Notes: generated by a model from the sequence alone, not told the origin. Positions 10,673 to 51,156 are shown, numbered from the stretch's first letter. The stretch: DNA of 64,000 nucleotides from Escherichia coli (GCF_048403405.1 NZ_CP183129.1), one strand, 5' to 3'. A program made the numbers and translations.

Positions 10673-11461
10673 ATGCAAACGATTATCCGTGTCGAGAAGC
10701 TCGCCAAAACCTTCAATCAGCATCAGGCGCTGCACGCGGTTGATCTGAACATTCATCACGGTGAAATGGTGGCTCTGCTTGGGCCGTCGGGTTCCGGCAA
10801 ATCCACCCTTTTACGTCACTTAAGCGGTTTGATTACCGGCGATAAATCTGCCGGTAGCCATATCGAGCTGCTGGGCCGCACAGTCCAGCGCGAAGGCCGC
10901 CTGGCCCGCGATATCCGCAAAAGCCGCGCCAACACCGGCTACATCTTCCAACAATTCAACCTGGTGAATCGCCTGAGCGTACTGGAGAACGTGCTGATTG
11001 GCGCGCTCGGCAGCACGCCATTCTGGCGCACCTGTTTTAGCTACTTCACTCGCGAGCAGAAACAGCGCGCGTTACAGGCGCTAACCCGCGTTGGCATGGT
11101 GCACTTTGCCCATCAGCGCGTTTCCACCCTCTCCGGCGGACAGCAGCAGCGTGTGGCGATTGCCCGCGCGCTGATGCAGCAGGCGAAGGTGATTCTGGCG
11201 GACGAACCCATCGCCTCGCTGGACCCGGAATCAGCGCGCATCGTGATGGACACCCTGCGCGACATCAACCAGAACGACGGCATTACCGTGGTCGTCACGC
11301 TGCATCAGGTGGATTACGCCCTGCGCTACTGCGAACGCATCGTCGCCCTGCGCCAGGGGCACGTCTTCTACGACGGCAGCAGCCAACAGTTTGATAACGA
11401 ACGCTTTGATCATCTCTATCGCAGCATCAACCGCGTCGAAGAGAACGCGAAAGCTGCCTGA
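10673..11461 (+). CDS. phnC: phosphonate ABC transporter ATP-binding protein
   Basis: 262 aa; Walker [13 protein letters not shown] signature LSGGQQQR. Confidence 0.92.
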
Positions 11462-48796: not shown

Positions 48797-50146
48797 TTAG
48801 ATAGCCCAGCCACCCGCATAGAAGGTCACCAGCGCCACAGCGATAACGACCGTACCGATGTTCAACTTGCGCCATTCGCCGGAAACCAGACGACCAATCA
48901 CCAGAGTCGCGAAGCCGATCATGATGCCTGTTACGATGTTACAGGTCAGCACGATGAATACCGCCGTAACCAGACCCGCCATCGCATCAACAAAATCAGC
49001 AAAGTCGATTTTCGCCACGTTACTCAGCATCAGCAGGCCAACGTACATCAGCGCCGGAGCCGTTGCATACCCCGGAACGAGGTAAGAGAGCGGAGAGAGG
49101 AACAGAATCAGCAGGAACAGCACGCCAACGGTGATAGCCGTCAACCCGGTTTTACCGCCCGCCGCCGTACCCGCCGCAGACTCGATGTATACCGCTGCCG
49201 GAGCTGCACCCACCAGGCCAGAGAAAACGCTGCTCATGGAGTCAGTGGTCAGTGCTTTACCGCCGTCGATGATCTGCCCATCTTTATCCAGCAGGTTCGC
49301 CTGACCGGCGACGGCGCGGATAGTTCCGGTGGCATCAAATACTGCCGTCATCACCAGCGCCAGAACGCTTGGCAGGACTACAGGATTCAGCGCGCCCATA
49401 ATGTCCAGGCTGCCAATCAGTGAATTGCCGTTTTCATCGCTCAATGAAGGCATGGCGAAAACGCCGGAGAAATGGACGTTAGGATCGAAGATCAAACCGA
49501 CAATTGAGATACCGATAATGGTCAGCAGAATGCCACCAGGGACTTTCAGTTTTTCCAGGCCGATGATCACCGCCAGACCTACCAGTGACATAATCACCGG
49601 GAAGGTCGCGAAATCACCCAGCGCAACGGGCAGACCATCAAGCGGGTTTTTAATCACCAGACCGACACCATTAGCGGCAATGAGCAGCAGGAACAGACCG
49701 ATACCGATCCCCGTGCCGTGCGCCACACCGTGCGGCAAGTTGCGCAAAATCCAGCTACGGATACCCGTGGCAGAAATTACCGTAAACAGTACACCCATCA
49801 GGAACACGGCACCCAGCGCGACAGGTACGCTAATATGTTGCCCCAGCACCAGACTGAATGCGGTAAACGCCGTCAGGGAGATGGCGCAACCAATCGCCAA
49901 CGGCAGATTAGCCCACAGACCCATCACGATAGAACCGAGTCCGGCAACCAGACAGGTCGCAACGAAAACTGCCGCAGGCGGGAAGCCTGCTTTACCCAAC
50001 ATGCCTGGAACGACGATAACCGAGTAGACCATCGCCAGAAATGTTGTTAACCCGGCAACCACTTCCTGACGGACAGTGCTTCCACGTTGTGAAATTTTAA
50101 ACCAGGCGTCGAGTGAACCGCCGGTACGCGCTGATGGCGTAGACAT
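48797..50146 (-). CDS. ghxP: guanine/hypoxanthine permease (NCS2 family)
   Basis: 449 aa; recognised as K-12 yjcD/ghxP. Confidence 0.88.
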
Positions 50147-50260
50147 AAGAAAACATCCCCTGAGAGTTTAATTTTCGTCAAGATGCGTGGCGGACAATCC
50201 CCTGCCAGCGAAACGTTATCTTCCTGCTCCAGGTTTGCGACAAATTGGTGCGTCGCAAAA

Positions 50261-50275
50261 AAGCAAACGTTTAGC
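50261..50275. promoter_or_regulatory. PurR-box-like operator upstream of ghxP
   Basis: AGCAAACGTTTAGCT resembles the PurR consensus ACGCAAACGTTTGCGT; two weaker copies at 50303-50317 and 50401-50417. Confidence 0.5.
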
Positions 50276-50562
50276 TCCGCGCATACAAAACGGGTGGTAA
50301 AAAAAGCAAACGATTATCCGGCGATCATAGCGGCTTTTTCAACCGAAGTTTGCTGCTTTTTTCTCTTTTATTGTCTTGACGATGAAAAACCAGGCAATTG
50401 ATGCGCAAACGTTATCGTCGATGCGCAAGATTGCAGCGTTATCGAGCCGCATACCGTTCAGGATTGCGATAAAAAATCGTCTGAGATGACAAAAATATTG
50501 CGGCTAAAAAGTGTACTTTTACACTGGCGAAGAAACGCCGGTGACATACAATTAAAGCATCA

Positions 50563-50702
50563 ACACCAACCGGAACCTCCACCACGTGCTCGAATGAGGT
50601 GTGTTGACGTCGGGGGAAACCCTCCTGTGTACCAGCGGGATAGAGAGAAAGACAAAGACCGGAAAACAAACTAAAGCGCCCTTGTGGCGCTTTAGTTTTG
50701 TT
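50563..50702 (+). ncRNA. ryjA: candidate small RNA convergent with and overlapping the soxR 3' end (position of K-12 ryjA)
   Basis: Plus-strand intrinsic terminator (stem aaagcgcc / ggcgcttt 50673-50693, then uuuaguuuuguu) with no plus-strand CDS upstream; 5' end is a guess from the ~140 nt length I recall for RyjA. Confidence 0.4.
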
Positions 50703-51156
50703 CATCTTCCAGCAAGCGTGCGCCGGTACCTTCTTCTCCTAAGCGGTCGCCCGGGTTACGCAATGGGCAATCACTGCGCGAAAGGCAGCCACAACCAATA
50801 CATCCGTCCAGCTCGTCACGCAGCGCCACTAAGGTATGAATGCGCCGATCCAACTCTTCTCGCCATTGGGACGAAAGCTGTTTCCACTCTTTCGCACTTA
50901 ATGTATGCCCTTCGGGCAACACGCCAAATGCTTCACGAATGGTCGCCAGCGGAATGCCAATACGCTGAGCAATTTTGATGATTGCGACATATCGCAACAC
51001 ATCACGTTTATATCGCCGCTGATTGCCACTATTACGGATACTGCTAATCAACCCTTTGCTTTCATAGAAATGCAGCGCCGATACCGCCACACCGCTGCGT
51101 TTTGCCACTTCGCCGGGGGTTAGCAGCGCTTTAATGCGGGGTAATTTCTTTTCCAT
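50692..51156 (-). CDS. soxR: redox-sensing MerR-family regulator with 2Fe-2S cluster
   Basis: 154 aa; C-terminal [12 protein letters not shown] cluster motif. Confidence 0.95.

Follow-up and report, generated by a model that had tools for sequence, protein, structure and literature searches.

The guanine/hypoxanthine transporter gene ghxP (yjcD) of Escherichia coli is a known target of PurR and, since PurR is a textbook one-operator repressor, its basic regulation is not news. The control region considered here, in a 64,000-nucleotide stretch of the chromosome (GCF_048403405.1, NZ_CP183129.1; the window), presents mostly known regulation in a layout that is unusually elaborate and has not previously been assembled. 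It lies in the 545-bp intergenic region that runs from soxR (50692-51156, minus strand) to ghxP. The coding sequence of ghxP, a 449-amino acid open reading frame (ORF) that is annotated under this name in 5,420 E. coli genomes and in K-12, occupies 48797-50146 on the minus strand, with its ATG at 50146; upstream therefore means toward higher coordinates, and the boxes that are discussed below are quoted on the gene strand. Compared with K-12 MG1655, the intergenic region of the window differs at seven of its 545 positions, none of them within those boxes.

Three PurR-like boxes at the predicted ghxP promoter

A sequence-only reading of the window had remarked on three strings containing the GCAAACG core of the PurR operator, some 115-270 bp upstream of ghxP, and had read them as likely PurR operators. 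The strings are indeed present, AGCAAACGTTTAGCT starting at 50262, AGCAAACGATTATCC at 50305 and GCGCAAACGTTATCGT at 50403, one or two nucleotides from where they had been placed and 115-272 bp from the ATG. Each belongs to a 16-bp PurR-like box on the minus strand. Box 3 (O3; 50403-50418; ACGATAACGTTTGCGC) is at -272 relative to the ATG and approximately -111 to -96 relative to the predicted transcription start site (TSS); box 2 (O2; 50304-50319; GGATAATCGTTTGCTT), a weak PurR-like site, is at -173 relative to the ATG and approximately -12 to +4 relative to the TSS; box 1 (O1; 50261-50276; AGCTAAACGTTTGCTT) is at -130 relative to the ATG and approximately +32 to +47 relative to the TSS. Directly upstream of box 3, at 50421-50440 on the minus strand, a conserved GTTGC...aTTGCGCAT repeats the sequence TTGCGCAT from the end of the box, so that the palindrome TGCGCA occurs twice, 20 bp apart; no known site could be assigned to this repeat, of which E. 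coli has an additional copy, GATAACGCTGC, at approximately 50439-50449.

The TSS in question is that of a predicted sigma-70 promoter (50313-50342, minus strand), with the -35 hexamer TTGAAA at 50342-50337, an 18-bp spacer and the -10 hexamer GATAAT at 50318-50313, which would place the start at approximately 50307-50305. This is the only promoter-like match on either strand in a scan of 50050-50750. The covarying RNA helices that are described below, downstream of 50286, form one RNA, which implies that transcription starts upstream of 50286. The possibility that box 3 or box 1 harbors a second promoter was considered and rejected: no hexamer pair passes the scan there, and the candidates that can be read by eye are unconserved. 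The -10 hexamer makes up the left half of box 2, and CGTTTGC, the right half, spans the discriminator and the predicted TSS, while box 1 lies within the predicted transcribed leader, where it also serves as the 5' strand of an RNA helix, Px.

The boxes were scored with four matrices: A, from the 27 other motifs that are derived from chromatin immunoprecipitation (ChIP) in Table 1 of Cho 2011 (PMC3159470); B, from 15 classical PurR targets, oriented; C, from the same 15, symmetrised; and D, the 313-site RegPrecise matrix as printed in the supplement of PMC4576408, which may itself include ghxP sites, a reservation that has to be set against its scores. The threshold, p<1e-4, is the FIMO cut-off of Cho 2011. 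In matrices A, B, C and D, respectively, box 3 scores 18.4, 18.5, 16.3 and 17.4, box 1 scores 19.1, 17.6, 15.0 and 16.0, and box 2 scores 11.4, 11.8, 10.3 and 15.2. All three are above threshold in all four matrices, the second and third of the originally noticed motifs (boxes 2 and 3) included; the exact matrix A values of p for boxes 3, 1 and 2 are 3.4e-7, 1.9e-7 and 2.6e-5, respectively. Three sites placed in K-12 by matrix A, which we take to be experimentally known operators, provide a scale: in the same order of matrices, purA scores 16.8, 16.7, 14.8 and 16.7, glnB scores 13.7, 14.3, 13.1 and 15.3, and the second purR site scores 11.0, 10.0, 9.5 and 13.8. Boxes 1 and 3 are at or above the validated low-affinity operators (purA, glnB, guaB) in the four matrices; box 2 is borderline and on a par with the second purR site. 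The better half-site of box 1 and that of box 2 are the same sequence, AAGCAAAC, with a score of 11.1, and the weaker half of box 3, at 6.4, is inside the classical range of 5.8-12.2.

How much of this might be coincidence? The GCAAACG core or its complement has 23 copies in the window, so that the bare 7-mer is unremarkable and it is the full 16-mers that are distinctive. After boxes 1 and 3, the next best score of matrix A in the window is 12.2, and in matrix D boxes 1-3 are the top three matches of the entire 64 kb. Matches at the level of boxes 1 and 3 are expected by chance ~0.02-0.04 times in 64 kb (~2e-4 to 4e-4 times within the intergenic region), and matches at the level of box 2 ~3 times; by itself, box 2 is within chance, and it is its position and its conservation that make it notable. 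The number of core copies and the expectation for box 2 are what might be said for chance matches without function, but two sites with p<4e-7 lie within 160 bp of each other and upstream of a known PurR target, and the conservation of all three boxes in ~80 species effectively refutes that notion.

PurR binding at ghxP and in the rest of the regulon

The in vivo evidence comes from a ChIP-microarray (ChIP-chip) analysis in which the PurR-bound region 'ryjA/yjcD', at 4,275,855-4,276,485, has a log2 ratio of 2.08, the maximum of the table, and is seen only with adenine; the motif listed for it, at 4,276,230-245, is ACGATAACGTTTGCGC (Cho 2011, PMC3159470). A PurR motif upstream of ghxP at 4,278,206 is also given by Sastry 2019, and box 3 is identical to the motifs of both. 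The supplement of PMC4576408 (2015) lists instead AGCTAAACGTTTGCTT at -130, which is box 1, among its RegPrecise-agreeing 'true positives', together with AAGATAACGTTTCGCT at -76 (box 0, to which we return below) as a novel additional PurR site; box 3 was outside its range, since the search ended at -236. Separate, independent sources thus name either box 1 or box 3 as 'the' PurR site of yjcD. We found no source that combines boxes 1 and 3 and none that mentions box 2. As to the response of the gene, ghxP is in the PurR-1 iModulon; adenine represses it, a purR knock-out context derepresses it, and HAP lowers it 4-fold.

The ChIP-chip region maps to 50163-50793 of the window and, being 630 bp wide, covers all three boxes. 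Its center is 67 bp from box 3, which is typical, the median offset between center and motif being 47 bp in 25 other regions. The centering of the region near box 3 weakly favors that box as the dominant site in vivo.

The operators of the pur regulon are alike in being 16-bp imperfect palindromes with a central CG and the pattern ACGnAAACGTTTGCnT in the control regions of purine genes, and the ghxP boxes conform to this description, as does the gene in its repression with adenine and its occupancy by PurR in ChIP-chip. The number and placement of the sites are different. A scan with matrix A of 125 kb of K-12 around 17 established PurR targets gives a single site at 12 of them (purC, purM, guaB, glyA, purL, cvpA-purF, purB, purE, purH, purT, tsx and codB). 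Weaker secondary sites are found at purR (88 bp from the first site, score 11.0), at xanP (98 bp away and inside xanP, score 11.9) and at adeP (32 bp away, score 12.7, the site that is used by RegPrecise). The suggestion in the sequence-only reading that multiple operators would be unusual for a PurR target was therefore overstated, since weak secondary sites are no rarity, particularly at genes for nucleobase transporters. The unusual feature is a pair of sites that score at least 18, accompanied by a third: no scanned target other than ghxP has two such sites, and its arrangement is the richest among those scanned. The spacings of 88 and 98 bp, and that of 99 bp between boxes 3 and 2 of ghxP, are all near multiples of 11. 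Also observed in the K-12 loci that were scanned (in NC_000913.3, L085 is at 1,737,872, L091 at 3,828,975, L092 at 3,896,741 and L082 at 2,619,769) was a strong, unannotated match inside uraA, ACGGCAACGATTGCGC, with a score of 17.3. Placement separates ghxP from the regulon at large in another way: 44% of PurR motifs lie between the -35 and -10 elements (Cho 2011, PMC3159470), and none of the three ghxP boxes does.

Conservation, spacing and the structured leader

The comparative set consists of the best 80 ghxP loci, all from Enterobacteriaceae and with protein identity of at least 90% (81 sequences scanned), drawn from Escherichia, Salmonella, Citrobacter, Enterobacter, Klebsiella, Raoultella, Kosakonia, Kluyvera, Buttiauxella, Cedecea, Trabulsiella, Mangrovibacter and others. 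Two of the public records carry names from elsewhere: L001 is labelled 'Bacillota bacterium MAG' and its ghxP protein is 100% identical to that of E. coli, and L076, labelled 'Chryseobacterium sp. 18061', has a ghxP locus of the Enterobacteriaceae type; contamination or mislabelling is likely in both, since the loci are typical of Enterobacteriaceae. The promoter, TTGAAA-18-GATAAT, is kept in 81 of 81 sequences, and matches to boxes 3, 2 and 1 are found in 80, 79 and 81, respectively, while the flanks of the boxes diverge across ~80 species. Box 3 is missing only in Pluralibacter gergoviae (L080), and the CGTTTGC of box 2 (kept in 79) is lost only in two Mangrovibacter loci, which retain GATAAT. 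Within E. coli, 5,210 of 5,399 genomes share an identical 67-bp segment that contains boxes 1 and 2, the neighboring 67-bp segments being far more polymorphic.

The substitutions that do occur in the boxes are biased to bases that are common in known PurR sites (P=0.03 for box 3, 0.03 for box 2 and 0.001 for box 1), and the mean change of score that they bring is -1.3, +1.7 and -0.7, respectively, with random substitution at about -3. The box 2 variants G1A and T15C are neutral or improving for PurR, and the tolerated changes A7T, T10A and A1G recur in both box 1 and the ChIP-backed box 3.

The distance from box 3 to box 2, start to start, is 99 bp in 78 of 79 loci. The 83-bp spacer between them (50320-50402, minus strand) holds an A/T-rich stretch upstream of the -35 hexamer and the -35 hexamer itself; it is fixed in length and variable in sequence, its 76 distinct versions having a mean pairwise identity of 62% (57% over the first 45 nucleotides). 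The other two spacings are anything but fixed, the box 2-box 1 distance taking 22 values, from 42 to 205 bp, and the box 1-ATG distance taking 23. Where a lineage has an insertion, the added DNA directly follows box 2, and box 1 keeps the block on its 5' side. O3 is therefore length-locked to the promoter and O1 travels with the leader. Insertions of 45-160 bp directly after box 2 are seen in L053, L057, L072, L038, L042, L074-L076 and L080, and many carry GC-rich hairpins, such as CGCTCCCCC...GGGGGAGGCG in Klebsiella; in Buttiauxella and one Citrobacter the insertions lie instead between the leader structure and the Shine-Dalgarno sequence. In the spacer from box 3 to the -35 hexamer, no covariation support was found for a conserved RNA structure or terminator, and RNA structure was accordingly rejected as the cause of the fixed length.

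The constant distance would be accounted for if PurR dimers on O3 and O2 interacted, directly or via a bending protein, in phase-locked cooperation or by DNA looping. A promoter-proximal operator with an auxiliary operator ~90-115 bp away at a fixed distance is what lac O1/O2/O3 and gal OE/OI offer for comparison, the secondary sites that matrix A finds at purR and xanP are at similar remove, and with the in vivo helical repeat of ~11 bp per turn of lac and ara looping studies 99 bp would be nine turns. At 10.5 bp per turn, however, 99 bp is 9.4 turns, the pattern has no more than three spacings behind it, and an UP element in the spacer, or the site of some other factor there, could be what fixes the length. 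Moreover, LacI is tetrameric and looping by GalR is assisted by HU, whereas PurR is a dimer that lacks the LacI tetramerisation helix and is reported to bind its two purR operators non-cooperatively; to our knowledge, no looping has been reported for PurR, which is known only as a dimer. The resemblance of ghxP to lac and gal is one of sequence spacing, and we regard an interaction of this kind as improbable.

The intergenic region also holds, toward soxR, the small RNA gene sraL/ryjA (50559-50699, plus strand; Rfam match, 153 bits), which overlaps the 3' end of soxR by 8 nucleotides. Its terminator hairpin (50668-50698) matches the sraL model on the opposite strand too, and is therefore probably a bidirectional terminator for soxR and sraL. 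Box 3 might have been thought to belong to a divergent promoter of sraL; that assignment was rejected since sraL is adjacent only in Escherichia, and box 3 and its spacing are also kept where the upstream neighbor is a co-directional ORF.

Box 1 is enclosed in a structured leader RNA (50181-50286, minus strand) with four helices, analyzed in an alignment of 71 distinct leaders. P1 (50286-50278 with 50189-50181) pairs GUAUGCG.G, directly 5' of box 1, with C.CGCAUAC, ~90 nucleotides downstream, and has compensatory changes at seven of eight pairs (GTATGCG/CGCATAC, GTAAGCG/CGCTTAC, GTCTGCG/CGCAGAC and GTATACG/CGTATAC among its variants). The P2 hairpin (50258-50235) has compensatory changes at seven of seven pairs, and P3 (50202-50190) is a further hairpin of the structure. 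Px (50276-50266 with 50217-50207) joins positions 1-11 of box 1 to box 0, as AGCUAAACGU with ACGUUUAGCU in most genera; it is 90% paired and has one covarying pair. For the leader structure as a whole, whichever measure is used, none of 500 shuffled controls reaches the observed value, and the slid controls fall far below it. Px and P2 are also present in the fold of the single E. coli sequence, the stability of which is not unusual (z=-0.12). A stand-alone RNA hairpin at box 1 was rejected, since AAACGUUU would be loopless.

Box 0 (50207-50222, minus strand; AAGATAACGTTTCGCT), the additional site of the 2015 supplement, is a sub-threshold PurR-like motif with scores of 8.3, 6.8, 5.1 and 8.8 in matrices A to D, below known sites. 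Most genera have GACGTTTAGCT here, the exact complement of the left half of box 1, AGCTAAACGT, with TTTAGC as the right arm of box 0; a fourth PurR operator was rejected on these grounds. Its being the complement of a palindromic operator explains why box 0 resembles a PurR site, and it is most likely the RNA complement of box 1, that is, the 3' strand of Px, and not an operator. On the plus strand, E. coli box 0 is CAGCGAAACGTT, which resembles one half of the rbs operator. This raises the matter of whether another LacI-family regulator with an ACGTTT-type core, such as RbsR, binds some of the boxes, all of which share the CG-centered core of that family. It is very improbable: boxes 1-3 are best with PurR matrices and carry the PurR-specific TTGC arm, the RbsR-like CGC of box 0 is unconserved outside Escherichia, and ghxP expression tracks PurR.

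What might the leader do? Ahead of a purine transporter gene, a structured 5' leader that has a closing helix and internal ones brings to mind the purine riboswitch (RF00167) and other leader RNAs connected with purines. Unlike that riboswitch, the ghxP leader has long junctions, its central helix is the transcript of a PurR box, and it is without an Rfam match: Rfam 15 yields nothing for it at E<=1 and one meaningless match at E<=10, sraL being the only feature that matches, so that a known Rfam family was rejected. No intrinsic terminator was found in the leader on the minus strand, the only terminator-like site being that of sraL/soxR at 50668-50698; a U-run precedes the P2 hairpin and none comes after it. 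A CCNCC element beside P1/P3 can pair with the GGGG of the Shine-Dalgarno sequence (50157-50160), and such pairing would be compatible with a translational switch. In the literature on a ghxP/yjcD promoter, untranslated region or riboswitch we found nothing relevant, the one match being a typographical error for ycjD. It is a speculative proposal, and on balance an unlikely one, that two coupled layers of control share the same DNA, the O3-O2 pair 99 bp apart and a roadblock at O1 constituting one, and the structured leader, which may be a translational or a ligand- or protein-responsive switch operating through the CCNCC-GGGG pairing, constituting the other. If it were true, the leader would be a new class of cis-regulatory RNA for an enterobacterial purine transporter.

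One operator or more

We favor PurR control of the conserved ghxP promoter through more than one operator, with a probability of roughly 0.6. In this proposal ghxP would be transcribed from TTGAAA-18-GATAAT and repressed by the PurR-hypoxanthine/guanine complex. O3, ~100 bp upstream of the start, would be the main site of binding in vivo. Bound at O1, ~40 bp past the start, the repressor would prevent RNA polymerase from leaving the promoter or from elongating, in the manner of purR and purB, while O2 would be a weak auxiliary site the occupancy of which would exclude RNA polymerase, since its good half-site abuts the -10 hexamer. The intragenic operator of purB and the two operators, downstream of the promoter, by which purR is autoregulated act on elongation, as roadblocks (Cho 2011, PMC3159470). 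Like purR, ghxP would have more than one operator and, like both, one that is downstream of the TSS; unlike them, it would combine upstream, promoter-overlapping and downstream sites, the last of these in a structured leader and with a roadblock that is put forward by analogy.

The confidence that we attach to the individual boxes is not uniform. That box 3 is a working PurR site can be taken as established, and box 1 is very probably a second operator, in the leader. Box 2, as a weak site on the -10 hexamer and start, is plausible and could go either way. The original attribution of all three boxes to PurR accordingly stands on the matrices, on the ChIP motif at box 3, on the RegPrecise-agreeing entry at box 1 and on conservation, and is weakened in that box 2 is poor and superimposed on the -10 hexamer, and box 1 is partly explained by RNA; the comparison with ChIP data likewise places all three boxes under the PurR-bound region, and the center of that region near box 3.

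The evidence that weighs against several operators is of different kinds and should be set out together, since most of it also speaks for a simpler arrangement, in which only box 3 binds PurR, box 2 is kept as promoter and start, box 1 is kept as a strand of Px, and their likeness to operators is incidental or a relic. The geometry of the ChIP region is one such item: its center lies 166 and 209 bp from boxes 2 and 1, respectively, and only two of the 25 other regions have offsets of that size. Both of the sources that are based on ChIP and MEME give box 3 only, and our search of the literature found no footprint, electrophoretic mobility shift assay or ChIP-exo data resolving single ghxP boxes. 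The second half-sites of boxes 1 and 2 are weak. That of box 1, AGCTAAAC, scores 3.9, like those of purA (3.8) and glnB (3.6), and that of box 2, at -0.8, is below the 1.4 recorded for the second purR site; all 15 classical operators have a weaker half of at least 5.8, a level that neither box attains, and both boxes are without G at position 3. For box 2, GATAAT fully accounts for the left half (positions 2-7), and a sequence one base removed from the box, ATGCAAACGATTATCC, occurs at 10673-10688 as a chance PurR-like match: it is the first 16 nucleotides, on the start codon, of a 262-amino acid ORF (10673-11461, plus strand; protein start MQTII), and as a coding-sequence match it is useful for calibrating box 2. 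For box 1, part of the conservation has an RNA reason, since the box forms a strand of Px, and the covarying pair of that helix is at the non-consensus position 3 of the box (CG in 26, UA in 25 and UG in 12). The literature also yielded no measured ghxP TSS, the position of which is a prediction. A last item bears on O3 itself, in that it is not obvious how an operator at about -100 could repress unaided.

Control from box 3 only is nevertheless unlikely in our judgment. An incidental match with p~2e-7 within a known PurR target is itself very unlikely, and the RNA accounts for box 1 incompletely: its invariant TTGC arm is outside Px, and in a clade that lacks box 0 (L074, L075, L078) box 1 is not merely kept but becomes the consensus, AGGTAAACGTTTGCTT, with a score of 22.4. 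The substitutions follow the tolerance of PurR, as already described. For box 2, 79 of 81 loci have the CGTTTGC after the -10 hexamer unchanged, though the promoter spacer varies freely.

Several operators at ghxP, the reading that we prefer, would also settle a discrepancy in the record: the ChIP-based yjcD site (-272) and the RegPrecise-type site (-130) appear by sequence to be equally good and are both conserved, so that the two can be reconciled. New in detail are the weak third site on the -10 hexamer and start, the strict 99-bp spacing and the covarying leader that holds the downstream operator. If this is confirmed, ghxP would have the most elaborate promoter known under PurR control and would be a convenient system in which to ask what auxiliary operators do for a dimeric repressor of the LacI family, and it would be equally suited to asking whether purine uptake in the enterobacteria is also subject to control at the level of RNA.

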